Assembly (NCBI GenBank): GCA_964619785.1
Contig: CAZUGH010000002.1
Location: 11,355-75,354 of the forward strand
Length of the DNA stretch: 64,000 bases
Reading direction: 5' to 3'
Source: an uncultured Lachnospiraceae bacterium
GTDB lineage: Bacteria; Bacillota; Clostridia; Lachnospirales; Lachnospiraceae
Shown here: positions 41,565 to 54,233 of the stretch, piece after piece
Numbering within the stretch: the stretch's first letter is position 1
Layout: every line of letters starts with the position of its first letter
The notes under the pieces: model-generated
Databases searched by the model: none
Told to the model about the DNA's origin: nothing
What the model saw: only the letters and a program-made list of their open reading frames with translations
Position numbers and translations under genes: made by a program

Positions 41565-42482
41565 ATGAAAAAGAGAATTAGTGCAGTTGTATTAGTATTA
41601 GCAATGGTTGTATCCTGTATGACAGGATGTGGAAAAAAGGATGCATTACAGGCAGCAGTTGAAACCGCACAGAGTGCGAAGAACATGGATGCCACACTAA
41701 AGATGGATATGTCAATGAAGATGAGTGTCGCTGGTCAAGAACAGACGTTAGATATGAATATGGATGGCGATATGACAATTTTCACGGACCCACTAAAATA
41801 CAAAATGAATATGTCGATGAAGATGGCAGGACAAGATACAAAGATGGAAAGTTATATGGCAAAAGAAGGCGAAAACTATATGACTTATACCAATTCTGGT
41901 ACGACATGGAGCAAGGTAAAAGTTGCTAGTGCAGATGAGATGGATAAGGTAAAAGCACAGAGTGATGCTTACAATGTTGCAAGTTTTGTTAAGAATAAAG
42001 AAGACTTGAAACCAGGTGAAGATGCTACTGAGAACGATAAGACTTATAAAACTTATACAGCAGTGATGACGAAAGAAATGATGAAAGAAGCAATGGAGAG
42101 TTCAATGGGAAATTCATTGGACAGCTTAAGTTCTCTGACAGGCGGTAAGCTTGACAAAGATAAATTAGATAGCATTCTTGATAGTATAAAAGATGTTACC
42201 TACACAATTTGGGTCGATGAAGAAGAAGCTGTTATCTATCGTGTGAAGTATTCTATGGCAGAGATGATGGATTCCTTGATGAGCCAGTTATTTGCATCAA
42301 TGGCATCTGGTTCTGATGCGGATGGTATGACAGCCGAGCAAAAGAAAGTAATGAAGAGCCTAAAGATTGAGATTGGTAAATGTGATATTGATATCGTTTA
42401 CAAGAACTACAATGAAGCAACTGATTTTGAAATTCCAGCAGAAGCACTTGCTGCTAAAGAGACTACTTCAGCAACAGAGTAA
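41565..42482 (+). CDS. Met-rich lipoprotein of unknown function (LolA/LppX-like size class)
   Basis: Signal peptide with lipobox VSCMTG-C. About 10 percent Met, with clustered MxM motifs. Confidence 0.7.
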   Translation: MKKRISAVVLVLAMVVSCMTGCGKKDALQAAVETAQSAKNMDATLKMDMSMKMSVAGQEQTLDMNMDGDMTIFTDPLKYKMNMSMKMAGQDTKMESYMAKEGENYMTYTNSGTTWSKVKVASADEMDKVKAQSDAYNVASFVKNKEDLKPGEDATENDKTYKTYTAVMTKEMMKEAMESSMGNSLDSLSSLTGGKLDKDKLDSILDSIKDVTYTIWVDEEEAVIYRVKYSMAEMMDSLMSQLFASMASGSDADGMTAEQKKVMKSLKIEIGKCDIDIVYKNYNEATDFEIPAEALAAKETTSATE

Positions 42483-43276: not shown

Positions 43277-44181
43277 GTAAACTTTTGCAGACAGAATTTG
43301 CTGGTGTGAGTTTTGATAATCCGGTAACGACAGCTTCGGGCACATTTGGCTCAGGGCTTGAGTATGAAGATTTTGTTGATTTGACAAAATTAGGTGCTGT
43401 AACTACCAAGGGTGTTGCAAATGTACCATGGCCAGGTAATAAAACGCCACGAATTGCAGAGACACACAGTGGAATGCTCAATGCGATTGGATTGCAAAAC
43501 CCAGGTATTGATACCTTTATTCACCGTGATTTGGCTTACTTGAATCAGATTGGTGCCAGAGTGATTGTGAATGTGTGTGGTCATTCTACGGAGGAGTACC
43601 TTGAGGTGGTAGAACGGCTGGCAGAAGAGAAAGTGGATTTACTTGAAATCAATATCTCATGCCCGAATGTAAAAGAAGGCGGCATTGCCTTTGGACAAAA
43701 GCCAGAGATGGCAGAGGAGATTACGAAAGCTGTGAAAAAGGTTGCGAAGCAGCCAATCATTATGAAGCTCAGTCCGAATGTGACAGATATTACCGAGATG
43801 GCCAAAGCAGTTGAAGCTGGTGGTGCAGATGCGGTATCGTTAATTAACACATTGACCGGTATGAAGATTGATGTGAAACGACGTGCTTTTGCGATTGCTA
43901 ACCAAACAGGTGGTATGAGTGGACCTTGCGTGAGACCAGTTGCAATACGAATGGTTTATCAGGTCGCACAGGCTGTACAGATTCCAATCCTTGGTATGGG
44001 TGGCATTGAGAATACAGAAGATGCATTGGAATTTATGATGGCAGGTGCATCGATGGTTGCCGTAGGAACAGCCAATTTCTTTAATCCGATGGCAACAAGT
44101 GAGATTATCGATGGCTTAGAAGAGTATGCAAAACAAGAGAAACTTACTAATATACATGACATTGTTGGTTGTGTGAGATAA
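43273..44181 (+). CDS. pyrD: Dihydroorotate dehydrogenase B catalytic subunit (class 1B)
   Basis: NISCPNV active-site Cys, GLQNPG, GGMSG, GGI. 4-nt overlap with pyrK. Confidence 0.93.
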   Translation: MSKLLQTEFAGVSFDNPVTTASGTFGSGLEYEDFVDLTKLGAVTTKGVANVPWPGNKTPRIAETHSGMLNAIGLQNPGIDTFIHRDLAYLNQIGARVIVNVCGHSTEEYLEVVERLAEEKVDLLEINISCPNVKEGGIAFGQKPEMAEEITKAVKKVAKQPIIMKLSPNVTDITEMAKAVEAGGADAVSLINTLTGMKIDVKRRAFAIANQTGGMSGPCVRPVAIRMVYQVAQAVQIPILGMGGIENTEDALEFMMAGASMVAVGTANFFNPMATSEIIDGLEEYAKQEKLTNIHDIVGCVR

Positions 44182-44202
44182 GAAAACAGGGGGAATGAAT
44201 TT

Positions 44203-44877
44203 ATGGAGAGTTATAAGCAGGAATTTATCGAGTTTATGGTAGATTCAAAAGTTTTGAAGTTTGGTGATTTTACATTAAAGAGTGGTAGAAAATCTCCATT
44301 TTTTATGAATGCTGGTTTATATGTGACAGGTGCACAGCTTCGTAAGCTAGGTGCATATTATGCCAAAGCAATCTATAACAAATACGGTGATGATTTTGAT
44401 GTGTTATTTGGACCTGCCTATAAAGGTATTCCGCTGAGTGTCGCAACAACAATGGCATTTGATGAATTATATGGTAAGGAAATTCGTTACTGTTCGAATC
44501 GTAAAGAGGTAAAAGATCATGGTGATACCGGTATTTTATTAGGTAGTCCAATCTATGATGGCGATAAGGTTGTTGTAATCGAGGATGTAACTACTTCCGG
44601 CAAGTCAATGGAAGAGACGATTCCTATTGTGCGTGCCCAGGCAGATGTTGAGATTGTTGGCTTGATGGTTTCTTTAAATCGTATGGAACGAGGCAAAGGT
44701 AATCAAGGCGCGCTAGATGAAATTAAGGATCTTTATGGATTCGAGACCAATGCGATTGTAAGTATGGCTGAGGTAGTTGAGCATCTTTATAACAAGCCTT
44801 ATAAAGGACAGGTTATTATTGATGATGAGCTAAAGAATCGCATTGATGCTTATTATAATGAGTATGGTGTGAAATAA
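44203..44877 (+). CDS. pyrE: Orotate phosphoribosyltransferase
   Basis: PRPP motif VVVIEDVTTSGKS, GPAYKGIPL. Confidence 0.93.
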   Translation: MESYKQEFIEFMVDSKVLKFGDFTLKSGRKSPFFMNAGLYVTGAQLRKLGAYYAKAIYNKYGDDFDVLFGPAYKGIPLSVATTMAFDELYGKEIRYCSNRKEVKDHGDTGILLGSPIYDGDKVVVIEDVTTSGKSMEETIPIVRAQADVEIVGLMVSLNRMERGKGNQGALDEIKDLYGFETNAIVSMAEVVEHLYNKPYKGQVIIDDELKNRIDAYYNEYGVK

Positions 44878-44991
44878 AATACATTTATTTACAGAGGTGA
44901 ATGGAGGGTTTCTAGGCATCTCTGTTTTTTTGCGTCAAAATTTCGTAAGATGTGACAAAATCAGACATGTGGTTTTGTAAATGTTTGCTAA

Positions 44992-45020
44992 TTTACACCG
45001 GGTAAAAAGGGTGTTAAGAT
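44992..45020 (+). promoter_or_regulatory. Putative promoter of the Tad-like cluster
   Basis: TTTACA, 17-nt spacer, TAAGAT with an extended TG, about 30 nt upstream of ATG 45051. Confidence 0.3.
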
Positions 45021-45050
45021 AGAGCCATTCCACTTGAAAGGAGGGGCTGT

Positions 45051-45836
45051 ATGAAGATAGCCTTTTGGAGTAATTCAAGAGGAAGGAATGGGGTTACTAG
45101 CAATTTGGTGTGTATTAGTGTTTTGCTTGGTCTGCTTAAGCAGCAGAGGGCAGTATTACTTGAGAATCATTGTCATATGAATAATTTGGCTAGTGCATTT
45201 TCGGCACAATTAGAAGCTAGAGAACTATTATGTGAAACAAGTCCACTGATTGGAAAGGATGAGTGGAATCATATTCTACAAGTGGTTGGTCGAGGCTCTC
45301 TCGGACAGTCTACCATTTCTTTACTTGAAAACAATCTATTATATATCCCAGGGACTAGGAGCCTTCAGGAAGAGACCATATCAGAATGGATGCAGAAGCG
45401 GTTAGTATCCGTATTGTCTTTGATGGAGGAGTATGTAGAGAAGATATATATTGATACGGCATCAAGTCACTATGAGAGTTCTCAGATTATCTTACAAGAA
45501 GCAGATTGTGTTGTTGTGAACTTGTCTCAGAACCCACTCGTATTACAACATTTCTTTCGCAATTTTTCACAGGTTCAGAAGAAAGCATTTTATCTAATCG
45601 GCAATTACAGTGCTGATTCTATTTTCACAAAAGAACATATATGCCATAAGTATGGTATTTCAAAAAATCAACTTGGGGTTATCCCCTATCATGTACCATT
45701 CTCAGACTCGCTGGCAGAGGGCCGGCTGATTTCTTTCCTACAGGACAACTTGTATTGTAGGGAAACCAATGTAAATTATAACTTTATTCAGGAGGTTGTC
45801 GAGACTGCACAGAAGTTTCAATGTAGCTTAAATTAA
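45051..45836 (+). CDS. ParA/MinD-fold protein with degenerate P-loop (TadZ/CpaE-like, no receiver domain)
   Basis: MinD-like order of elements: KIAFWSN-SRGRNGVTS (in place of KGGVGKTT), VLLEN, IYIDTAS, ADCVVVNLSQNP, YLIGNY, LGVIPY..S..EG. The Walker A Lys is absent. Confidence 0.5.
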   Translation: MKIAFWSNSRGRNGVTSNLVCISVLLGLLKQQRAVLLENHCHMNNLASAFSAQLEARELLCETSPLIGKDEWNHILQVVGRGSLGQSTISLLENNLLYIPGTRSLQEETISEWMQKRLVSVLSLMEEYVEKIYIDTASSHYESSQIILQEADCVVVNLSQNPLVLQHFFRNFSQVQKKAFYLIGNYSADSIFTKEHICHKYGISKNQLGVIPYHVPFSDSLAEGRLISFLQDNLYCRETNVNYNFIQEVVETAQKFQCSLN

Positions 45837-45849
45837 TAGGGAGGTAGCT

Positions 45850-48798
45850 ATGAGAAGAATTCATATAGCTTTTATTTTCGCACTCTTTTTTATTATGCTG
45901 CTGCCCGGGAATCTTGCTAAAGCAGTAGATGTAAATAGTTACTCTTCGTTGAAAAAGGAGTTAGAGAAGAGTGGGAGTGCAACGGTAAATGTTACGGAGA
46001 AGATATTAATTAAGGGTGTTATTCATGTTAGGGGTACGAAGACTCTCAATGGCATGAACAATAATCTAAATCGTGATGCCACAACGGGAAAGCAGTATTA
46101 TGGTGTGTTGTTTCAGGTTGGTAAAGCGGGCGCCTACACAGGTCATCTGACAGTTAAGAATGCTGTAATTAGTGGGAATGGACAAGCAGCTTCCATGTCA
46201 GCTGGGGTTGATGGAAGATTGATTCGGGTTGTAGAGCCAGGTTCTTCCTTGGTGTTGACGGATGGTGCTGTTCTTAAGAATAATTTTAATTCGGATCGAA
46301 TAATGGATGGCGGTGGTGGAGTCACGGTACTGAATGGATGCACTGCCGAGATGAGAGGCAGTAGTCAGATTATTTCGAATCGTTCTAAGACAGGTGGTGC
46401 GGCCATTCGTGTCGAAGCCGGAGGTTCGTTTACACTGACAAACGGGTTGATTCAAGGAAACCAAGTGAATCAGTATCAGCTTGATGATATATATGGTGGG
46501 CTTGGAGGTGCCATTCACAATTTTGGTTATGTTGAGATTAAGAAAGGTGAGATTCTTGGGAATGTCGCTAACGGAGATGGTGTCAATGGTGGTCTCGGTG
46601 GTGGAATCTATAATCAAGGTGAACTTGTGATTGCGTCAGGTACGATACAAGGGAATCTGGCATCTTTAGGTGGCGGAGCTATTTATTCAAGTGGAAGTAG
46701 AAGCCTTACGCAAATAAAAGAAGGAAGTATTGTGAAAAATACTTGTGGAGATTGCGGTGGTGGCTTATTTATTAATAATGGTGGACGATTGCTTTTTGAA
46801 GGTGGTGAGATAGGTGGCAACCAGGCAGGAACGGGTGGCGGTGTGTATCTCAGTAAACAAGAGACACGAATGGAGATGAAAGGTGGATGGATTCATGGCA
46901 ATGTAGCAAGTAAGTCAACGAATCTAACAGGTGGTGGCCTTCGTGTCAATGGTGCTACAGCAGAGATTAGTGGTGGTGTGTTTGGAATCAATCGCCAGAA
47001 TAGAAAAAGCGATAATTTATGCCCGAACACAGGAAAACCGAATTATTCAAGTCTGATATATAATAGTGGCATTGTTCGTGCAACTGGTGGCAATCTATAT
47101 AGTAGTGCAGTTGGAGCAAGGGCAATTGTTAATATGGGTGAGATGGAACTAAAATTTAAACGAAATTGTGGTATTCATGGAGAGGGTGAGGTAGCAGTTC
47201 TTAATTATGCAACACTCATGTATGGGTCTATATCAGGTTCAGCACCATTAATTGATGGAAGTTTCAAAATTGGAGTCGAGAATAATCAGCAAATGGTCAT
47301 GAGACAAGGAAATATAAGCGCGAGCATAGATGGAATTAAGAATCATGGTGATCTTGAGATATATGGTGGCGCTTCTCATGGAAGACGCGGTGTCAACGCA
47401 TTGGCTGGTAGTTTGGTACTAGGTGGAAAAGTGACGATTCCATCGATTTATCTTGCGAGTGGTCAGATTGTCCACGTTGCAGGAGGAGTAGATATTAACG
47501 GGGGTTTACTTTGCCCAGACGATTATTATGAGGGTAGAGTACTTGTTCGTTCGGATATCGAAGACGCTGATTTCAACATGAAGCAGTTTCGGTTAGAACC
47601 TAAGAATCCTTATCGCATGCAAAGTGCAGGTAAAAAACTATATATTACGGTTATTCGATATATTGTGGAATTTGATAGTAATGGTGGAAAGGGCTACACA
47701 GATTCGATTGTTTCGATAGCAGGAATGCCAATTACGATGCCAAAGTGTGGATTTACTCGAAATGGCTGTGTATTCCTTGGATGGTCAAAGGTGAGGTTTT
47801 CGAAACCGGTCTTGAGTGAGAAACCAGATTATAAGGAAAAAGAGATTGTACCATCATTAGCAGATGAGAAGACAGTCATAACATTGTATGCTGTATGGGG
47901 GTCTGTTCCTACATTTAAACCAGTATATTCGGATGTGGAATTCTATCAGGGTGAATATGTTGATGAGAAGATTTTAAAGAGTCTTGTAACGGTTTATGAT
48001 GAGCTAGATGGAGATATCAGTCAAAGTGTACGAATTGAAAAGATTATATATCGAGGGGCGATTGCGTATTATCCGATTCATCTTGACACAGCAGCAAAAT
48101 ACATTGGCACAATTCAGATTCATTATAAATGTAAGAATCAAAGTGGAAGAAATACAGACTACTATTTATCGGTAAGATTGAAAGAGAATCAACCGCCTAG
48201 TATAAAAGGAAAAGATCGTTATTACTTTTTGGATGAACTAAAAGAGATGACGATTGATGAGGTGGTAGACGAACTAACTACAACTGTAGAATTTCGGGAT
48301 GACGTAGAATCTAAAGATGAATTAATGAAAGATTATTATATCAATAAGATTGATATTCCGATTGATCGAACAGGAAATCATACAGTATATATTAACGTGC
48401 GAGACCAATATGGACATCGTTTCTATATGAAACCAAATGAAAAGAAGAGGTATGGCTCAGGGAAAACAAGTGATTGTCTCTTTTTATTCCATATCATTGC
48501 TAATACACAAAATCATGATGAGTTCGCTGGGTATGTACGATTTATATCTAGTGCTCATATAGATACGCTTAGTCAATCTTCCAAATGGAGAGGTACTCAA
48601 TTAAGCCAACGAATCAAAACGTATTTTGAGAGAGAAACAGTGGGTGGTAATTGTGCTTCGATTTGGTGTTTTGATAAAACACAGATTGATGCAGTACAAG
48701 CGTTGAATGAAAGTGGTGAGGATCTGTTTGGAGAAGAGGCTAATCTGAATTTTCTCCAACGGTTTCACCCAATAATTCGAAAGGAGGATGAAGAATGA
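45850..48798 (+). CDS. Secreted 982-aa beta-helix / Listeria-Bacteroides repeat / Ig-like multidomain protein (candidate adhesin)
   Basis: Signal peptide ...PGNLAKA-VD. Eight tandem Gly-rich turns (GGxGGAI/GGGIY ... G.I.GN.A). VEFDSNGG...GFTRNGCVFLGWS...TLYAVW repeat. Two D..DGDIS-type Ig-like modules. No LPXTG motif and no C-terminal TM. Confidence 0.7.
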   Translation: MRRIHIAFIFALFFIMLLPGNLAKAVDVNSYSSLKKELEKSGSATVNVTEKILIKGVIHVRGTKTLNGMNNNLNRDATTGKQYYGVLFQVGKAGAYTGHLTVKNAVISGNGQAASMSAGVDGRLIRVVEPGSSLVLTDGAVLKNNFNSDRIMDGGGGVTVLNGCTAEMRGSSQIISNRSKTGGAAIRVEAGGSFTLTNGLIQGNQVNQYQLDDIYGGLGGAIHNFGYVEIKKGEILGNVANGDGVNGGLGGGIYNQGELVIASGTIQGNLASLGGGAIYSSGSRSLTQIKEGSIVKNTCGDCGGGLFINNGGRLLFEGGEIGGNQAGTGGGVYLSKQETRMEMKGGWIHGNVASKSTNLTGGGLRVNGATAEISGGVFGINRQNRKSDNLCPNTGKPNYSSLIYNSGIVRATGGNLYSSAVGARAIVNMGEMELKFKRNCGIHGEGEVAVLNYATLMYGSISGSAPLIDGSFKIGVENNQQMVMRQGNISASIDGIKNHGDLEIYGGASHGRRGVNALAGSLVLGGKVTIPSIYLASGQIVHVAGGVDINGGLLCPDDYYEGRVLVRSDIEDADFNMKQFRLEPKNPYRMQSAGKKLYITVIRYIVEFDSNGGKGYTDSIVSIAGMPITMPKCGFTRNGCVFLGWSKVRFSKPVLSEKPDYKEKEIVPSLADEKTVITLYAVWGSVPTFKPVYSDVEFYQGEYVDEKILKSLVTVYDELDGDISQSVRIEKIIYRGAIAYYPIHLDTAAKYIGTIQIHYKCKNQSGRNTDYYLSVRLKENQPPSIKGKDRYYFLDELKEMTIDEVVDELTTTVEFRDDVESKDELMKDYYINKIDIPIDRTGNHTVYINVRDQYGHRFYMKPNEKKRYGSGKTSDCLFLFHIIANTQNHDEFAGYVRFISSAHIDTLSQSSKWRGTQLSQRIKTYFERETVGGNCASIWCFDKTQIDAVQALNESGEDLFGEEANLNFLQRFHPIIRKEDEE

Positions 48799-48977
48799 CA
48801 GAGTTTCTTCAAGAGTATGGCAAGATTATTGTTGCTGTTCTGGTTATCTTAGCTTTGGTTGCGATTGTTGTATTATTCCGTACACCGATGTCTAATATGT
48901 TTGCCAATCTATTCAACAATTTCTTTTCTTCAGTAGGTTCAAGTGCTGGTTTGCCTGCACCAACCTTTAATCCATAA
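48795..48977 (+). CDS. Flp-like (type IVb/Tad) pilin candidate, leaderless; probable major subunit
   Basis: 60 aa starting MTEFLQEYGKIIVAVLVILALVAIVVLF. AAGGAGGA RBS. The ATG overlaps the upstream stop (ATGA). In-frame TGA 2 codons upstream. Confidence 0.55.
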   Translation: MTEFLQEYGKIIVAVLVILALVAIVVLFRTPMSNMFANLFNNFFSSVGSSAGLPAPTFNP

Positions 48978-48988
48978 GGAATTATTTT

Positions 48989-49016
48989 GCCGGGTGGATT
49001 TACCCATCCGGCCTTT
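48989..49016 (+). terminator. Hairpin after the pilin gene (possible partial terminator/attenuator)
   Basis: GCCGGGTGG-ATTTAC-CCATCCGGC (one G-U) followed by CTTT. Confidence 0.35.
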
Positions 49017-49061
49017 GAAAAAGAATACACAAGTGTGATATACACCTTAGATGGAGGACAT

Positions 49062-50126
49062 ATGAGTGATTTTCATAAAAAGTATTTATTAAATCGGGAA
49101 GATTACGGTTTGCTATATAACTATGTAGTAGATGATAATGTGACAGATATTAATTGGAATGGGAGGCAGCTGTGGATTGATGACTTGAGTAAAGGCAGAT
49201 ATCTGGCACCTGAAGTATTAGAGCCTGTATTTGTTGAGCGGTTATCTACTTTGATTTCGAATGTAGTTAGTGTCCCATATAATCGCATGAGTCCAGTTCT
49301 TGAAGCAGAGACAGAAGAGTTGAGAATTAGTATTGTGCATGGAAGTGTGGCACATTCTGGTGCAACGATTTCATTGCGTAAGATTCCTGCTGTTCGACGA
49401 ATGACGAGTGAGGATATGATTCACTCTGGATATTGCGATAAAGAGGTTCGAAACTTCCTAGTGAATTGCATTCGTGCACACTTTAATATTGCGATATGTG
49501 GCATGCCAGGTGCTGGCAAGACGGAACTTCTCAAGTTCTTGACACAATATATACCGGATACAGAACGAGTGATTACCATTGAAGACACACTAGAAATACA
49601 TTATCAGAAGATTAATCCTAACAAGGATTGTGTAGAGATGAAGGTCGCGGAGCAATTCACCTACACAGATGCAATTAAGGCGTGTCTGCGACAGCTTCCC
49701 AAGTGGATTATTCTATCAGAAGCACGCTCAACAGAGGTACGATATTTATTGGAGTGCTTTAGCACAGGTACATATGGAATGACGACGTTGCATACGGATG
49801 ATGTTCGGAATATCCCGGATCGGATAAAGAACATGGCTGGTGGTGAGATGGATGCCACACGTATTGTGAATGATACATATCGTTTTATTAATGTGGGGAT
49901 TTTAGTGAAAAGTATTGTTGAAAAGGATGGAAGAATTACAAGAAGGATTGAACAGATTGGTGTGTTTGACCGCTTCGGAGCAGATTTGATGCATGTGGTG
50001 AACCAGGTAAAGATGATTGTAGATAATGGAACCATTGTTGGTCGAGATATTGACCATAACATAGAGAGACGATTTCATGAGATGGGGATAGATAATCCGT
50101 TTGTGAGGGAGGGATTTGTTGGATAA
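49062..50126 (+). CDS. CpaF/TadA/VirB11-family type IV filament secretion ATPase
   Basis: Walker A CGMPGAGKTELL, Asp box RVITIEDTLEI, Walker B-like WIILSEARSTE, His box GMTTLHTDD. ATG 49062 is 4 nt after GGAGGA. Confidence 0.85.
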   Translation: MSDFHKKYLLNREDYGLLYNYVVDDNVTDINWNGRQLWIDDLSKGRYLAPEVLEPVFVERLSTLISNVVSVPYNRMSPVLEAETEELRISIVHGSVAHSGATISLRKIPAVRRMTSEDMIHSGYCDKEVRNFLVNCIRAHFNIAICGMPGAGKTELLKFLTQYIPDTERVITIEDTLEIHYQKINPNKDCVEMKVAEQFTYTDAIKACLRQLPKWIILSEARSTEVRYLLECFSTGTYGMTTLHTDDVRNIPDRIKNMAGGEMDATRIVNDTYRFINVGILVKSIVEKDGRITRRIEQIGVFDRFGADLMHVVNQVKMIVDNGTIVGRDIDHNIERRFHEMGIDNPFVREGFVG

Positions 50127-51435
50127 TCAATGGAGAGGTCGAATAATACGCTTTGGCATTACCGTTATTGGTGTATTGTTGGTGATGATGATTTATGAAT
50201 TGTGGTGGTGGTGTGGTCTGGGATTGGGGGTTATAGCTCTTTTTGCTGTACCACGAATGAATTATTATCGTAGAAAATCACGCGAGGAAGAGCAAGTATA
50301 TCACCAGGTGACAACATATATGGAACAACTTCTGTGTTCATATAAGAGAACAGGACAGATATTGCCTTCCTTACAGGATTGTGTGAGTATTTTTCAAGAT
50401 GATGATATGAAACAGACGATACTTAAGACAATACATGTTATGAGGACTGGAGAAGGTGTTGAGGATGGAGATATTACCAAGTCTGCTTTTGAGATTATGG
50501 AGAGAGCATATCCGAGTCGGCGTATGAAGATGATTCATAGCTTTATTTGTCAGGCAGAAGCCACTGGTGGTGAGCGAGAAGATGCATTAGATATTTTGTT
50601 AGAGGAGATTCAGCTTTGGAGACAAAGGACACAACTTTATCAGAAGAAAAAGTCATTTATTCGTATTGATACTATGATTGCCGTGGGACTCTCTGCATTG
50701 ATGTGTTATATCTCAAAGCTTTTGACGCCATCCGAATTGGGTATTCGATTACCTGAAACAATGTTATATCAGATTGCTACATCAGTTGTTTTAGGGGCAT
50801 TTGTAGGCACCATTGTATTGGTGTGGAAGAAGCTTACGGGAAGCTGGTTAGATTCAGATGAGATGGTAACGGAGAAACAAGAGCAGAGTATGGATAAGCA
50901 GTATGATATCTTGAAAGGGCATATTGAGACAAAGTCTAGAATTAAGCACAACTTGGCATTGAGAATTTGTCGACGTGAGGTTGAGAAAATATATCCTTAC
51001 TGGCTTTTATCCGTTACATTACAGATGCAGACAGAGAGTGTTTATTCGGCAATTGAAAAATCCTGTCATTCCATAGCAGGAATTTTTAAACGGGAAGTAG
51101 GAGTGTTATTAGAGGAGATATATCAGGAGCCATCTGCTTTACAACCGTACCTAAATTTTTTTCAGGAGTTATCCATACCAGAGGTACAGACAGGAATGAA
51201 AATACTTTACTCTGTTTGTCAAAACGGTTATGAGGATTCGAGAAGACAGTTGGACTTTTTGATTTCAAACAATAACCAGTGCATGGATCGTAGTCAATCT
51301 CATCATTATGAAAACCAAGTGGCGGGCCTATCAATGCTGAAGCATATGCCAATGATGATTGCATGCGTCAAGTTGTTAGCTGATTTGGTGAATTTGCTAG
51401 CACTTACCATGGGAATGTTTCAACAGATTGTTTGA
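50116..51435 (+). CDS. Polytopic membrane protein, candidate fused TadB/TadC (GspF-like) platform
   Basis: 11-nt overlap with the ATPase gene. Topology is 2 TM, then about 130 aa soluble, 2 TM, about 170 aa soluble, and a C-terminal TM. No sequence motif recognised; call rests on position and architecture. Confidence 0.45.
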   Translation: MLDNQWRGRIIRFGITVIGVLLVMMIYELWWWCGLGLGVIALFAVPRMNYYRRKSREEEQVYHQVTTYMEQLLCSYKRTGQILPSLQDCVSIFQDDDMKQTILKTIHVMRTGEGVEDGDITKSAFEIMERAYPSRRMKMIHSFICQAEATGGEREDALDILLEEIQLWRQRTQLYQKKKSFIRIDTMIAVGLSALMCYISKLLTPSELGIRLPETMLYQIATSVVLGAFVGTIVLVWKKLTGSWLDSDEMVTEKQEQSMDKQYDILKGHIETKSRIKHNLALRICRREVEKIYPYWLLSVTLQMQTESVYSAIEKSCHSIAGIFKREVGVLLEEIYQEPSALQPYLNFFQELSIPEVQTGMKILYSVCQNGYEDSRRQLDFLISNNNQCMDRSQSHHYENQVAGLSMLKHMPMMIACVKLLADLVNLLALTMGMFQQIV

Positions 51436-51463
51436 GCAACAAAATGCTCGGAAATGAGGGAGT

Positions 51464-51574
51464 ATGGAAGAATTTATAGAAGAATATGGTGAAATGTTAA
51501 TTATGACATTGATGGGCTCTGGAATGTTAGCCATTTTTATGGGACTAGCAAAGATGATTGGAGAAATGTTTTGA
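51464..51574 (+). CDS. 36-aa Flp-like mini-pilin candidate (not in the ORF track)
   Basis: Sequence MEEFIEEYGEMLIMTLMGSGMLAIFMGLAKMIGEMF. GAGGGAG RBS. In-frame TGA 3 codons upstream. Confidence 0.5.
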   Translation: MEEFIEEYGEMLIMTLMGSGMLAIFMGLAKMIGEMF

Positions 51575-51589
51575 CAGGGAGGATAGATT

Positions 51590-51739
51590 GTGAGTGAATG
51601 GATTGCAGAGTATGGACGTTTGATTATCATGGCGTTAATTGGAATTTTAATTATGTCGGTCATTATATTTATGTGGCAATATCTGGGATTTTTCATGAAT
51701 GCTTTGGGTGATTCACTGATGGGAGGGAATGCTTTGTGA
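51590..51739 (+). CDS. 49-aa Flp-like pilin candidate (not in the ORF track)
   Basis: GTG start 6 nt after AGGGAGGA. Sequence (M)SEWIAEYGRLIIMALIGILIMSVIIFMWQYLGFFMNALGDSLMGGNAL. The stop overlaps the next start (GTGA). Confidence 0.5.
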   Translation: MSEWIAEYGRLIIMALIGILIMSVIIFMWQYLGFFMNALGDSLMGGNAL

Positions 51740-52188
51740 GTACGTTGATTCGACAATATGGACTTGTTATGATGGCAGTACTGATTGGGATTTTTCTTAT
51801 TTGTGGCGTATATCAAACGTTTCAAAATGAATGGGAGAAGACAGGTGTGATTGCAGATGGTAAACAAATGGAATTCGAGGGAAGGGCATCAACTGGCGGA
51901 GGGTATCCGATACTTAAAACACAAGATTGTCAAGTAAAGGTTGGTGACGTATTGGATGTGAGAGATTTAGCTCATGCCGCTGATGTAGATGGAAAAGATT
52001 TGAGCAAAGAGATTACCTATAAAGAGATTTCAGGTAATCTTCTTGGTAAAGATGGTAAGTCTTACTTGATTGATACGACAAAAGAGGGTGTATCGTGGCT
52101 TCAATTTCAAGTAAAAGGAAAGAGTGGTCTAGTTACTTGTAAGGAAGCTATCGTTATCGTGGATTGGAGGAAGAGTAAACAACTATGA
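51736..52188 (+). CDS. Pilin-like N-terminus fused to an Ig-like domain (candidate minor pilin)
   Basis: (M)STLIRQYGLVMMAVLIGIFLICG N-terminus. The C-terminal part has VGDVLDVRDL..AADVDGKDLSKEITY, resembling the modules in the 982-aa protein. Confidence 0.5.
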   Translation: MSTLIRQYGLVMMAVLIGIFLICGVYQTFQNEWEKTGVIADGKQMEFEGRASTGGGYPILKTQDCQVKVGDVLDVRDLAHAADVDGKDLSKEITYKEISGNLLGKDGKSYLIDTTKEGVSWLQFQVKGKSGLVTCKEAIVIVDWRKSKQL

Positions 52189-52511
52189 GAATGATGATTG
52201 AGCATTTTATTACTTTTTTTCTACTGTTAGTATTTGTTTGGATTGGTGTTATGTATGTCATGCAAAACCTGTCCTATTCTAGTGCAAGACAATACCATAG
52301 TGGAGTTGTTAATCAAATTGAGGATAGCAATTTTTCAGAAGATATCATCGCGGAATGCAAGGATAAGGCAGAAAAGGTTGGATATGATTTAAATATTGAA
52401 CGATATTACAATGGGACTAATCAGGATGCTATGGTGACACTTTCTTTTATTTATGAGATTCCCATACTTCATACACAAAAGACTTATTCAATACAAGGCT
52501 ATGCTAGATAG
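52185..52511 (+). CDS. Pseudopilin-like small protein
   Basis: MRMMIEHFITFFLLLVFVWIGVMYV N-terminus is a degenerate version of the shared motif. ATGA overlap with the upstream gene. Confidence 0.4.
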   Translation: MRMMIEHFITFFLLLVFVWIGVMYVMQNLSYSSARQYHSGVVNQIEDSNFSEDIIAECKDKAEKVGYDLNIERYYNGTNQDAMVTLSFIYEIPILHTQKTYSIQGYAR

Positions 52512-52526
52512 GAATGGAGGAAGTTT

Positions 52527-52907
52527 ATGAAAAGTATAATGATATCATTTATTTGTGTACTTTGCTTACTCTTTACCGTTCAAGCACATTCCGATATAAC
52601 GAGCTACTCGGTTCGAAAGGGAGAACTACAGGATGCACTAGGAGTTGCGATGAGTCAGACAATGAGAGAGTGTATGGTTCAGGGAAGTTATGGCATTGTA
52701 GATGAGAAAACTTTTACAGCAGCATTTTTACGAAGTTTATTGAGTAAAGTGAATTCAGATGGGGAAATAACAGTGAAGATTGTGACGTTAGATATGGAAG
52801 AAGGATTTTTAGATGTGGAAGTGATTCAGAAATATCAAGATTATATCGGTAAAGAGCGAGAACTCAAACTGAGAAGAACTGTGATATTAGAAGAACCGAC
52901 CCTATAA
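52527..52907 (+). CDS. N-terminally anchored or secreted small protein, last gene of the cluster
   Basis: GGAGGA RBS. Hydrophobic N-terminus MKSIMISFICVLCLLFTVQAHS. Preferred over the overlapping ORF 52514-52705. Confidence 0.4.
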   Translation: MKSIMISFICVLCLLFTVQAHSDITSYSVRKGELQDALGVAMSQTMRECMVQGSYGIVDEKTFTAAFLRSLLSKVNSDGEITVKIVTLDMEEGFLDVEVIQKYQDYIGKERELKLRRTVILEEPTL

Positions 52908-52917
52908 GAGTCGGTTC
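52893..52917. terminator. Hairpin between convergent genes
   Basis: GAACCGAC-CCTATAAGA-GTCGGTTC. It overlaps the + gene stop. No clear T-run. Confidence 0.3.
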
Positions 52918-52922
52918 TAGTA

Positions 52923-54233
52923 TTAGTCTTCTTGAGAATCAGATGATTCTGTCAATGGTGGGTTCACATGAATCTGAATTTTGTCAATTCGGTTATTGTG
53001 TACCTCGAGAACAGTATAGATTGCATATTCGTCCTCTGTTCTCTCGCCGGCTTCTGGGAAGTGGGCAAGTAGATTGATGACATGACCAGCAATGGAATCA
53101 TAGTCATCAGATGTAATCGGTAGATGAAGATTTTCTTCGATATCATCTAGGCTAGTAGAGCCCAGAACGATATATTCATTATCTGCGATGATTTGAATAT
53201 CATCTTCTTCATCCTCATCATATTCGTCTCGGATATCGCCTACGATTTCTTCAAGTAAGTCTTCCATAGTAATGAGACCTGCCAAGGCACCATACTCATC
53301 CAAAACAATTGTCATTGAGATGAATTCTTTACGCATCTCGATGAAAAGTTCAGAAGTGTTTTTGTATTCATAAGTAAAATGTGCTTCTCGCACCAAACTC
53401 ATTAAATCAAAGCTCTCACGGTCGCCTTGATAGAATACAAAGTCTTTTAGATTTATTATACCTACGATATTGTCAATACTTTCGTAATAAACAGGCATTC
53501 GTGCAAATTTGTTATCTGTAAACTGTGCCAATAGTTCTTCATATGAAATATCCGTACTCACCATCTCGATGTCCATACGAGGGATCATAACATCTTTAGC
53601 AAGTGAATCGCCAAAATCAACAATATTGGTAATCATCTGACGTTCTTCACTTTCGATGACACCTTCTTCGTGGCTAACATCTACAAAGGTTCTAAGCTCG
53701 TCCTCGGTGATGGTGGCCTTCTCAGACATATCAACGCGTAGCAGACGAAGTATCAGATTGGATAATCCACTTACTAACCATACAATAGGTGTTAATATCT
53801 TTGTTATAAACAAGATCACGCTTGCATACATGAGCGACATTTTTTCGGCATTCATAGTGGCAAATGATTTTGGCGTAATTTCACCAAAAATCAAAATCAG
53901 GAATGTGAGGATTCCAGTAGCAATTCCAGCACCTAGACTGGCATTCTGACTGAGTCCCATACGTTCACAGATGGAAAATGCATAGGCTGTAGAAATTGAA
54001 GAAGCGGATAAGTTCACTACGTTATTACAAATCAATATAGTGCTTAACATCTTATGAGGTTCTTCAATAAGCTTTAATACAGTAGCAGCACGTTTCACTT
54101 TCTCTTCATCTAGGGCTCTCATACGTAATTTATTTACTGTAGTAAGAGCTGTTTCAGCAGAAGAGAAAAAGGCGGATAAGGTAATTAAAACAATAATTAC
54201 AATAATATTCACCGCATCACTCGGGTCCAACAA
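52923..54233 (-). CDS. CNNM/HlyC/CorC-family transporter (DUF21-CBS-CorC_HlyC)
   Basis: Four N-terminal TMs with GEITPK, a CBS pair, and a C-terminal CorC_HlyC region. Confidence 0.9.
   Translation of the reverse strand: MLDPSDAVNIIVIIVLITLSAFFSSAETALTTVNKLRMRALDEEKVKRAATVLKLIEEPHKMLSTILICNNVVNLSASSISTAYAFSICERMGLSQNASLGAGIATGILTFLILIFGEITPKSFATMNAEKMSLMYASVILFITKILTPIVWLVSGLSNLILRLLRVDMSEKATITEDELRTFVDVSHEEGVIESEERQMITNIVDFGDSLAKDVMIPRMDIEMVSTDISYEELLAQFTDNKFARMPVYYESIDNIVGIINLKDFVFYQGDRESFDLMSLVREAHFTYEYKNTSELFIEMRKEFISMTIVLDEYGALAGLITMEDLLEEIVGDIRDEYDEDEEDDIQIIADNEYIVLGSTSLDDIEENLHLPITSDDYDSIAGHVINLLAHFPEAGERTEDEYAIYTVLEVHNNRIDKIQIHVNPPLTESSDSQED

Follow-up and report, generated by a model that had tools for sequence, protein, structure and literature searches.

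The stretch of DNA analysed here (the window) comprises 64,000 nucleotides (nt) of contig CAZUGH010000002.1 (positions 11,355 to 75,354, forward strand) from an uncultured Lachnospiraceae bacterium, and the subject is a gene within it that encodes a secreted protein of 982 amino acids (aa). The gene belongs to a compact cluster of same-strand genes located between the pyr operon (end of pyrE at 44877) and a convergent CNNM gene. The gene order of the cluster is Z261, the 982-aa gene, Flp60, ATPase, 439-aa gene, 36-aa gene, 49-aa gene, p150, p108, and p126 (Table 1). The comparison with related loci shows that the 982-aa protein is a conserved, operon-embedded genetic partner of a machine similar to tight adherence (Tad) systems and no chance neighbor. 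Most likely, it is the dedicated adhesin of this machine.

The 982-aa protein and its gene

A ribosome-binding site (GGGAGG) precedes the gene, 13 nt past the stop codon of the upstream 261-aa gene. At the 3' end, the TGA of the gene overlaps the ATG of the 60-aa Flp-like open reading frame (ORF) Flp60 (ATGA, 48795-48798), an overlap already recorded in the first-pass annotation of the sequence, and an AGGAGG site precedes the Flp-like ORF. An independent metagenome-assembled genome (MAG; locus L001) holds a 99%-identical copy of the protein, and orthologs number in the dozens; the 982-aa ORF is therefore no chance ORF. On the opposite strand, an ORF of 139 aa (46198-46617) lies within the Gly-rich repeat region of the gene. 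No independent evidence backs this ORF, which probably results from the composition of the repeats.

In the scan, no terminator-like site separated the 982-aa gene from those downstream, and positions 44000 to 54000 gave no Rfam match. The promoter-like site upstream of Z261 is a possible promoter of the cluster; the count of promoter-like and terminator-like sites in the region was not above that in shuffled sequence. Horizontal transfer of the cluster in the window was considered and rejected, as its G+C content is similar to that of the flanks, no phage matches were obtained, and the plasmid matches amounted to a single weak one.

To describe the architecture of the protein, a full-length AlphaFold2 model was calculated from 37 family sequences, with a mean predicted local distance difference test score (pLDDT) of 84.3 and a predicted template modeling score of 0.63. 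A separate model of aa 686-982 reached a pLDDT of 88.8. The N terminus consists of MRR, a hydrophobic stretch, and the sequence LAKA/VD. It forms a helix (aa 2-16) in the model, and aa 1-28 are the sole hydrophobic segment of the protein. The Sec signal peptide cleaved after LAKA, as proposed in the first-pass annotation, agrees with these data and with the Sec signals found at the same place in the orthologs. The following ~545 aa were modeled as a regular beta-helix with three strands per turn, for the most part with pLDDT >90. About eight Gly-rich repeats similar to those of polymorphic membrane proteins (PMPs) had been noticed in this part. Eight units were counted, beginning at aa 153, 183, 217, 248, 274, 303, 329, and 361, and all of them fall into the beta-helix of the model.

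The sole domain of the protein recognized by Pfam was Flg_new (PF09479, aa 604-648), which scored 22.1 bits with the whole protein and 28.2 bits with the isolated segment at a cutoff of 27. This match agrees with the Listeria-Bacteroides repeat described earlier for this position. Chlam_PMP, Beta_helix, and Pectate_lyase_5 gave no Pfam match in the 982-aa protein itself, neither with the whole sequence nor with segments.

Downstream of Flg_new, both immunoglobulin (Ig)-like modules were modeled as tandem beta-sandwiches with pLDDT >90. In a Foldseek search against the PDB, they matched the Ig/cadherin-like modules of a Moritella chitinase (E 1e-7), InlK, the SraP binding region, Rib, and Big_3, and for module 1 there was a tblastn hit to a gene annotated as DUF5011. 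Two Ig-like modules with D..DGDIS signatures had been expected from the sequence; the two sandwiches were found, but the exact signature is present only in the first. The C-terminal helical module had no fold match in the PDB. With the full model, Foldseek returned matches to the Ig modules only and nothing informative for the beta-helix. Solved structures related by sequence were found neither for the whole protein nor for the profile of the N-terminal helix.

An LPXTG-like motif and a C-terminal transmembrane segment were both absent from the 982-aa protein, and its segments gave no Pfam match to SLH, choline-binding, GW, or LysM domains even at E <= 10. The lack of LPXTG, choline, SLH, and C-terminal transmembrane anchors stated in the first-pass annotation therefore holds by motif, hydrophobicity, and Pfam analysis.

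Table 1. Features of the gene cluster in the window, with positions, strand, and basis of assignment
Feature	Position	Strand	Basis or remark
Promoter-like site, TTTACA-17-TAAGAT, TG-extended	44992..45020	+	Consensus match, within the 173 nt that separate pyrE from the cluster
Z261, 261-aa cytoplasmic protein	45051..45836	+	Directly upstream of the beta-helix gene in 34 loci
Gene for the 982-aa secreted beta-helix/Flg_new/Ig-like protein	45850..48798	+	ATG start
Sec-type signal peptide, aa 1-25, cleavage predicted after LAKA	45850..45924	+	Hydrophobicity, model, orthologs
Right-handed parallel beta-helix, aa ~26-570	45925..47559	+	AlphaFold2 secondary structure and pLDDT
Eight PMP-like Gly-rich coils (GGxGGAI...G.I.GN.A), aa 153-385	46306..47004	+	Sequence, invariant G/N columns
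Flg_new/InlB B-repeat (Listeria-Bacteroides repeat) domain, aa 603-685	47656..47904	+	Pfam, beta-rich in the model
Ig-like module 1, DUF5011-type, YDELDGDIS, aa 688-778	47911..48183	+	Model, Foldseek, hhalign to p150, tblastn
Ig-like module 2 with helical insert, aa 784-883	48199..48498	+	Model, Foldseek, alignment
C-terminal four-helix module, aa ~901-975, family-specific	48550..48774	+	Model, alignment
Flp60, 60-aa leaderless Flp-like peptide, putative pilin (MTEFLQEYG...)	48795..48977	+	PF16982 Flp1_like, 22 bits, below cutoff
TadA/CpaF-like secretion ATPase	49062..50126	+	PF00437 T2SSE, 90 bits
439-aa polytopic membrane protein	50116..51435	+	Four transmembrane-like segments; T2SSF in orthologs
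36-aa leaderless Flp-like peptide (MEEFIEEYG...)	51464..51574	+	Homolog in short-form loci as well
49-aa leaderless Flp-like peptide (MSEWIAEYG...)	51590..51739	+	Sequence pattern
p150, 150-aa modular pilin-like protein	51736..52188	+	MSTLIRQYG Flp-like N terminus and DUF5011-type Ig
p108, 108-aa pseudopilin-like protein	52185..52511	+	N-terminal hydrophobic helix from the initiator Met
p126, 126-aa small protein, pseudopilin-like or secreted, final gene of the cluster	52527..52907	+	N-terminal hydrophobic helix

Conservation of the protein and of its place in the cluster

The ATPase of the window was used as a probe in a scan in which each GTDB species was represented by one genome; it yielded 38 Lachnospiraceae loci with ATPase identities of 48-75%. 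An ortholog of the 982-aa protein is encoded between Z261 and the Flp/ATPase genes in all 34 loci with an ATPase 63-75% identical to the probe and the upstream sequence present. The near-identical MAG locus L001 has it at the same position, and the five metagenome loci found via the C-terminal motif show the same order wherever the flank suffices. In the first-pass annotation, the complete absence of the protein from orthologous clusters had been named as the finding that would speak against a role in the machine; this was checked and is not the case.

Two forms of the protein were distinguished. Long forms of 865-1030 aa occur in 12 genome loci, the window, and the near-identical MAG. They are homologous over the full length, and their genes are followed by an Flp gene of 60-68 aa. 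Short forms of 470-700 aa, present in 22 of the 34 loci, retain the N-terminal helix, Ig-like module 2, and the C-terminal module. Here the gene directly precedes the ATPase gene, the 60-aa Flp gene is missing, and a single Flp-like ORF of ~34-40 aa follows the platform gene. In view of these 22 loci, the genetic link is with the machine rather than with the 60-aa Flp in particular, and the adhesin-pilin gene pair suggested earlier does not apply as a general arrangement. The junctions are tight in both forms. The stop/start overlap is with the Flp gene in the window and L003 and with the ATPase gene in at least eight short-form loci, and in nine further loci the gap is <=10 nt.

Three distant clusters (L045, L048, and L050), whose ATPases are 42-46% identical to that of the window, also encode a giant protein with a Flg_new-Ig-Ig(-C-terminal) cassette. 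These proteins have 1170-1597 aa, and the cassette is 23-25% identical (E 1e-12 to 1e-18). The gene order is rearranged. In L045 and L050, it is ATPase, platform, small peptides, pseudopilins, Flp, and giant protein; in L048, the giant protein is followed by two small genes, Flp, ATPase, a split platform, and the rest. The clusters L039 and L040 (ATPase 48-49% identical) end with an unrelated secreted protein of 614/631 aa that carries an InlB-type repeat (Flg_new_2). Occurrence in 34 of 34 informative loci and in three distant rearranged clusters confirms the earlier view of the protein as a partner of the Tad-like machine and no bystander.

Conservation within the family was analyzed in an alignment of 32 orthologs. 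All of them contain the helix core (aa 26-330), Ig-like module 2, and the four-helix module at the C terminus. The remaining parts are optional: extra coils (aa 331-600) were found in 13, Flg_new in 15, and Ig-like module 1 in 21 orthologs. The sequence of the signal peptide is not conserved. The best conserved large region is the part of the helix core at aa 153-330, with a mean pairwise identity of 49% over all 32 orthologs. The invariant residues of the beta-helix are nearly all Gly and Asn, and a conserved acidic pair was not seen in the alignment. Invariant residues other than glycine cluster in Ig-like module 2 (R790, F793, and E796; motif RDQxGxRFYM...RYGxGK) and in the C-terminal module (GYVRF and the invariant W939, P959-F960, N965, and F968). 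A surface protein that docks with a constant end and presents a diversifying part would be expected to show such a pattern.

A Pfam scan of the 32 orthologs (E <= 0.01) gave matches to Flg_new (PF09479) in 14 orthologs (best E 8.9e-9), Pectate_lyase_5 (PF20585) in 11, Beta_helix (PF13229) in 5, and Chlam_PMP (PF02415) in 2. PF20585 carries the description "putative pectate lyase-like adhesive domain." PF16403 (Bact_surface_Ig-like) was matched by one ortholog and also by the counterpart of p150 in L048. A search with the family profile returned mostly generic beta-helix proteins, and the closest relatives by sequence that lie outside the family have the domains PF02415, PF13229, and PF20585; the nearest of all (P0002, 29% over 39%) is not located in a Tad locus. 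The C-terminal 293 aa, which comprise both Ig-like modules and the helical module, had only 46 relatives at E <= 1e-3 among 1.84 billion representatives (HMMER), and some of the giant cassette proteins of the distant clusters are among these 46. The small number of C-terminal relatives, the cassette in the rearranged clusters, and the InlB-type repeat in L039/L040 argue for selection acting on the association, beyond inherited synteny.

Role of the 982-aa protein

The machine encoded by the cluster is most likely a Lachnospiraceae-specific Tad-like (type IVc-like) filament machine, with the 982-aa protein as its dedicated non-pilin surface partner. It has in common with canonical Tad clusters (flp-tadV-rcpCAB-tadZABCDEFG) a CpaF-like ATPase, a probable TadB/C platform, Flp-like subunits with EY(G), pseudopilin-like genes, and a possible TadZ-like gene. 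In contrast to these clusters, its Flp-like genes are leaderless, no prepilin peptidase motif was found in the window or in 50 related loci, and a giant secreted protein is a constant member. A literature search turned up no description of this Lachnospiraceae cluster or of its giant protein.

Large proteins are associated with other type IV filaments as well. PilC/PilY1 and the predicted MshQ are large Sec-exported non-pilin proteins that are encoded together with minor pilins and dock on tip complexes; for PilC/PilY1, docking on the minor-pilin complex occurs via the C terminus (PMC13533445). With PilC/PilY1 of type IVa pili and the predicted MshQ of the mannose-sensitive hemagglutinin pilus, the 982-aa protein shares a size of ~1000 aa, an ordinary Sec signal, and an operon with minor pilin or pseudopilin genes. 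As in PilC/PilY1, a variable outward part is combined with a conserved C-terminal part. However, the model of the 982-aa protein contains no beta-propeller, and there is no similarity in sequence or fold. The 982-aa family conserves a four-helix module and not the extreme C terminus, and its host machine is Tad-like, monoderm, and equipped with leaderless pilins. A conserved terminal beta-strand in the style of PilY1 was considered and rejected, as the orthologs differ from one another in the length and sequence of the final ~10 residues.

TadG/CpaL/KilN are large modular proteins in Tad-type clusters for which functionalization of the tip by a variable distal domain has been proposed (PMC12075869, PMC13533445). 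They possess a pilin-like N-terminal helix with a prepilin-peptidase site, whereas the 982-aa protein and 31 aligned orthologs have Sec-type signals. Unlike TadG/CpaL/KilN, the 982-aa protein contains neither a vWA nor a KilN-like domain. Classification as a large pilin of this type was rejected, as the N terminus is not pilin-like. A modular minor pilin was also considered on account of the N terminus MRRIHIAF, which is similar to MRMMIEHF of p108 and MKSIMISF of p126. This was rejected too: the N termini of the orthologs are variable Sec signals with n-, h-, and c-regions and AxA sites, which differ in length and sequence and keep no fixed register. Because the N terminus is a variable Sec signal and not pilin-like, the 982-aa protein resembles the non-pilin PilY1/PilC-type accessories in logic more than TadG/CpaL.

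With respect to the domains themselves, chlamydial Pmp and "choice-of-anchor Q" proteins share the GGAI-type Gly-rich coils, the predicted beta-helix, and the Pfam matches of the family. They differ in possessing export and anchoring elements absent from the 982-aa protein, namely the autotransporter barrel, type IX secretion, SLH, or an LPXTG sorting domain. InlK, the SraP binding region, and Rib-domain adhesins have the Flg_new repeat and tandem Ig-like sandwiches in common with the 982-aa protein (Foldseek E to 1e-7). These adhesins are anchored by LPXTG/sortase or GW and encoded outside pilus-assembly operons, whereas the 982-aa protein lacks LPXTG.

The view of the protein as an adhesin is based on these adhesin-type folds, i.e. 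the PMP-like beta-helix, PF20585 in 11 of 32 orthologs, the InlB B-repeat, and the Ig-like modules similar to those of InlK, SraP, and Rib. Its view as a partner of the machine is based on the conserved position, the tight gene junctions, and the recurrence of the cassette independent of synteny. In the mechanism that we favor, the 982-aa gene would share a transcript with the machine genes and in many cases be coupled to them in translation, and the protein would be exported by Sec via its cleavable signal peptide. Outside the membrane, it would be captured by the filament or by a priming complex composed of p150, p108, p126, and Flp peptides. Capture would involve the invariably present parts, Ig-like module 2 and the C-terminal four-helix module, and the beta-helix stalk, together with the optional extra coils, Flg_new, and Ig-like module 1, would be presented to ligands. 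This mechanism is favored because p150 shares an Ig-module-1-type domain with the 982-aa protein (hhalign probability 94.7%, E 5.8e-8) and because there are precedents, i.e. the docking of PilC/PilY1 and the predicted MshQ on tip complexes and the customized tips of Tad pili (PMC12075869). We consider the chances for capture through Ig-like module 2 and the C-terminal module, with the beta-helix as an adhesive stalk, to be about even. The adhesive function, the attachment to the filament, and the identity of the docking part are inferred.

Several observations weigh against this mechanism. The C-terminal helical module was modeled at moderate confidence, with pLDDT values of 52-88 per 10-residue block, and the extreme C terminus is variable, with no PilY1-style terminal beta-strand evident in it. 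L044 (a 9-kb contig, beside an integrase) and L047 encode cassette proteins with no Tad-like genes nearby. Nearly all orthologs at the same position belong to a single bacterial family, in which the flanks are conserved (pyrE upstream), and the co-occurrence is therefore partly inherited synteny. An uncleaved signal peptide alone could retain the protein on the membrane, and binding, association with the filament, and even the formation of a filament by the cluster are presumed from the genes.

Part of these observations would also fit an adhesin that is merely co-transcribed with the machine, held by an uncleaved signal anchor or by C-terminal wall binding and without contact to a filament. 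The conserved position would then reflect vertical inheritance and co-regulation of colonization factors. Vertical inheritance is evident from the flanking synteny (pyrE upstream and CNNM downstream), two relatives bearing the cassette have no visible Tad-like genes, and the Sec signal makes export independent of the machine. However, the cassette recurs in rearranged clusters with ATPases of only 42-46% identity, stop/start overlaps with machine genes are frequent, the C-terminal 293 aa have very few public relatives, and a known wall-binding domain was not found with Pfam or Foldseek. An adhesin independent of the filament appears rather unlikely to us. The same genetic linkage would be expected if the protein were a cargo of the machine. 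Type II secretion systems are relatives of type IV filaments and expel Sec-exported folded proteins. In a similar way, the Tad-like machine could form a pseudopilus that pushes or releases the Sec-exported giant through the thick Gram-positive wall, with the C-terminal module as recognition signal. The lack of a wall or membrane anchor is in line with secretion, and a short pseudopilus would fit better than a long fiber to the short-form loci, which have no Flp60 but an Flp-like peptide of ~34-40 aa and pseudopilin-like genes. Against secretion by the machine stands the fact that the host is a monoderm without outer membrane, for which Sec export is normally enough. Moreover, substrates of type II systems are usually several, with genes not inside the machine operon, and the PMP-like helix, InlB repeat, and Ig-like modules are typical of cell-attached adhesins. 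We regard a cargo as unlikely.

Pectate lyases and other enzymes active on glycans fold as right-handed beta-helices, too, and Pectate_lyase_5 was matched by 11 of 32 orthologs. The protein might be a component of the machine and no adhesin, a structural or enzymatic factor for passage of the filament through wall or capsule, e.g. a polysaccharide-binding or -cleaving beta-helix or an extracellular collar, which would functionally substitute for the RcpC/secretin-side proteins missing from monoderm clusters. In line with such a role, the core of the N-terminal helix is the best conserved large region, and the gene is always found beside Z261 at the head of the operon. However, the invariant residues of the helix occupy Gly/Asn turn and ladder positions with no acidic pair hinting at catalysis, and PF20585 is itself described as an adhesive domain. 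The size of 470 to 1600 aa and the domain content are highly variable, which is unusual for a fixed structural part, and the distant clusters L039 and L040 encode no homologous helix. A structural component of this kind seems improbable.

An adhesin captured by the filament would belong to a known kind, the type IV filament with a non-pilin accessory adhesin, of which this Lachnospiraceae cluster would be a new variant. A position of the protein on the filament would widen the range of non-pilin tip adhesins beyond type IVa pili to pili of the Tad type and to monoderms. The variable middle part (extra coils, InlB repeat, and Ig-like module) could set the specificity for host, mucus, or fiber, and docking could be the task of the invariant C-terminal module. 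Little is known of how Lachnospiraceae, which dominate among gut commensals, attach, and the cluster provides a concrete module for this with a constant giant adhesin candidate.

Neighboring genes of the cluster

The Flp-like peptides deviate from those of canonical Tad clusters at the N terminus. The 60-, 36-, and 49-aa ORFs open with MxE[FW][LI]xEYG, with the EYG motif 6 residues from the initiator Met, and in-frame stops are located 2-3 codons upstream of all three. Because of these stops, a class III leader peptide is impossible in the three ORFs, and an Flp prepilin leader with a G/XXXXEY cleavage site was not found in the Flp-like ORFs of the window. The leaderless start M-x-E/D-hydrophobic-x-x-E/Q-Y/F-G is common to all related clusters (loci L003-L023, L045, L048, and L050), and the distant clusters are leaderless as well (MDFSLKQALG..., MKDILGDYG...). 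Gram-positive tad-like loci without recognizable prepilin motifs were noted in earlier surveys (PMC3244431). Orthologs of Flp60, regarded in the first-pass annotation as the putative major pilin, are 59-78% identical in the 12 long-form genome loci, and L001 holds a 100%-identical copy. In L001, the 49-aa ORF was called as a gene and the 36-aa ORF was not.

The active-site motif of the prepilin peptidase (Peptidase_A24, TadV/CpaA; G[GAMS]GD[VIALFM]K) was absent from all six frames of the 64-kb window and of 50 related loci; the test covers the motif only, and the gene may be located elsewhere in the genome. The absent motif fits peptidase-independent pilins. Tentatively, the cluster could represent an undescribed class of type IV filaments in gut Clostridia, with leaderless, peptidase-independent Flp subunits and a Sec-exported giant loaded via a novel helical module, which would make this giant the first adhesin of a Tad-type pilus that is no pilin, PilY1-like in logic, unrelated in fold, and found in a monoderm, but we do not consider this probable. 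Leaderless pilins would challenge the rule that a class III signal peptide and a dedicated peptidase are indispensable to subunits of type IV filaments. In the distant cluster L050, a gene for an Rce1-like CPBP intramembrane protease (L050 6887-7558) lies among the pilin-like genes.

The protein encoded upstream of the 982-aa gene, Z261, had been described as TadZ-like. Weak Pfam matches of its orthologs to CbiA/ParA-type families (CbiA in 5 of 24, best E 0.016; BcsQ in 2 and AAA_31 in 1 of 24) point in this direction, but the family profile found nothing in the PDB, and the Z261 protein of the window had no Pfam or NCBIfam match. Its N terminus is P-loop-like but without the Walker lysine (SNSRGRNGVTS; family consensus SNxRGKSCVTSN), and 32 residues are invariant over 24 orthologs. 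Z261 may be a MinD/ParA/TadZ-like pseudo-ATPase with a degenerate P-loop. The more distant clusters L038-L040, L045, L048, and L050 lack the gene.

The nearest solved structures of the secretion ATPase are CpaF (8rkd and 9e24, E 2e-20), followed by archaeal GspE, FlaI, and VirB11; no NCBIfam equivalog cutoff was reached. The mechanically defined ORF begins with TTG at 48987. The ATG at 49062 agrees with the N termini of the orthologs (MNDFQKK...) and with the gene call in L001, and this indicates that the true start is ATG 49062, with a spacer of 84 nt after the Flp gene. The 439-aa membrane protein is probably a platform of the TadB/TadC type. T2SSF (PF00482) was matched by 5 of 22 orthologs (best E 3.4e-4) and not by the protein of the window, and the profile found no relative among solved structures. 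The Ig domain of p150 is homologous to Ig-like module 1 of the 982-aa protein, as described above, and the start of p150 overlaps the stop of the 49-aa ORF (GTGA).

In the neighborhoods of L045, L047, and L050, genes for DNA polymerase A, DNA ligase, RecU, Fic, and sortase were observed, together with a gene for a 2919-aa RNA-polymerase-like fusion protein with SpaA domains. Such surroundings of the distant versions, similar to a mobile element or a large phage or plasmid, hint that the system may also travel horizontally. In the pyr operon of the window, a gene for a 305-aa DUF6612 lipoprotein-like protein (41565-42482) with a Cys lipobox signal peptide (...MTGCGKK) is inserted between pyrF and pyrK.

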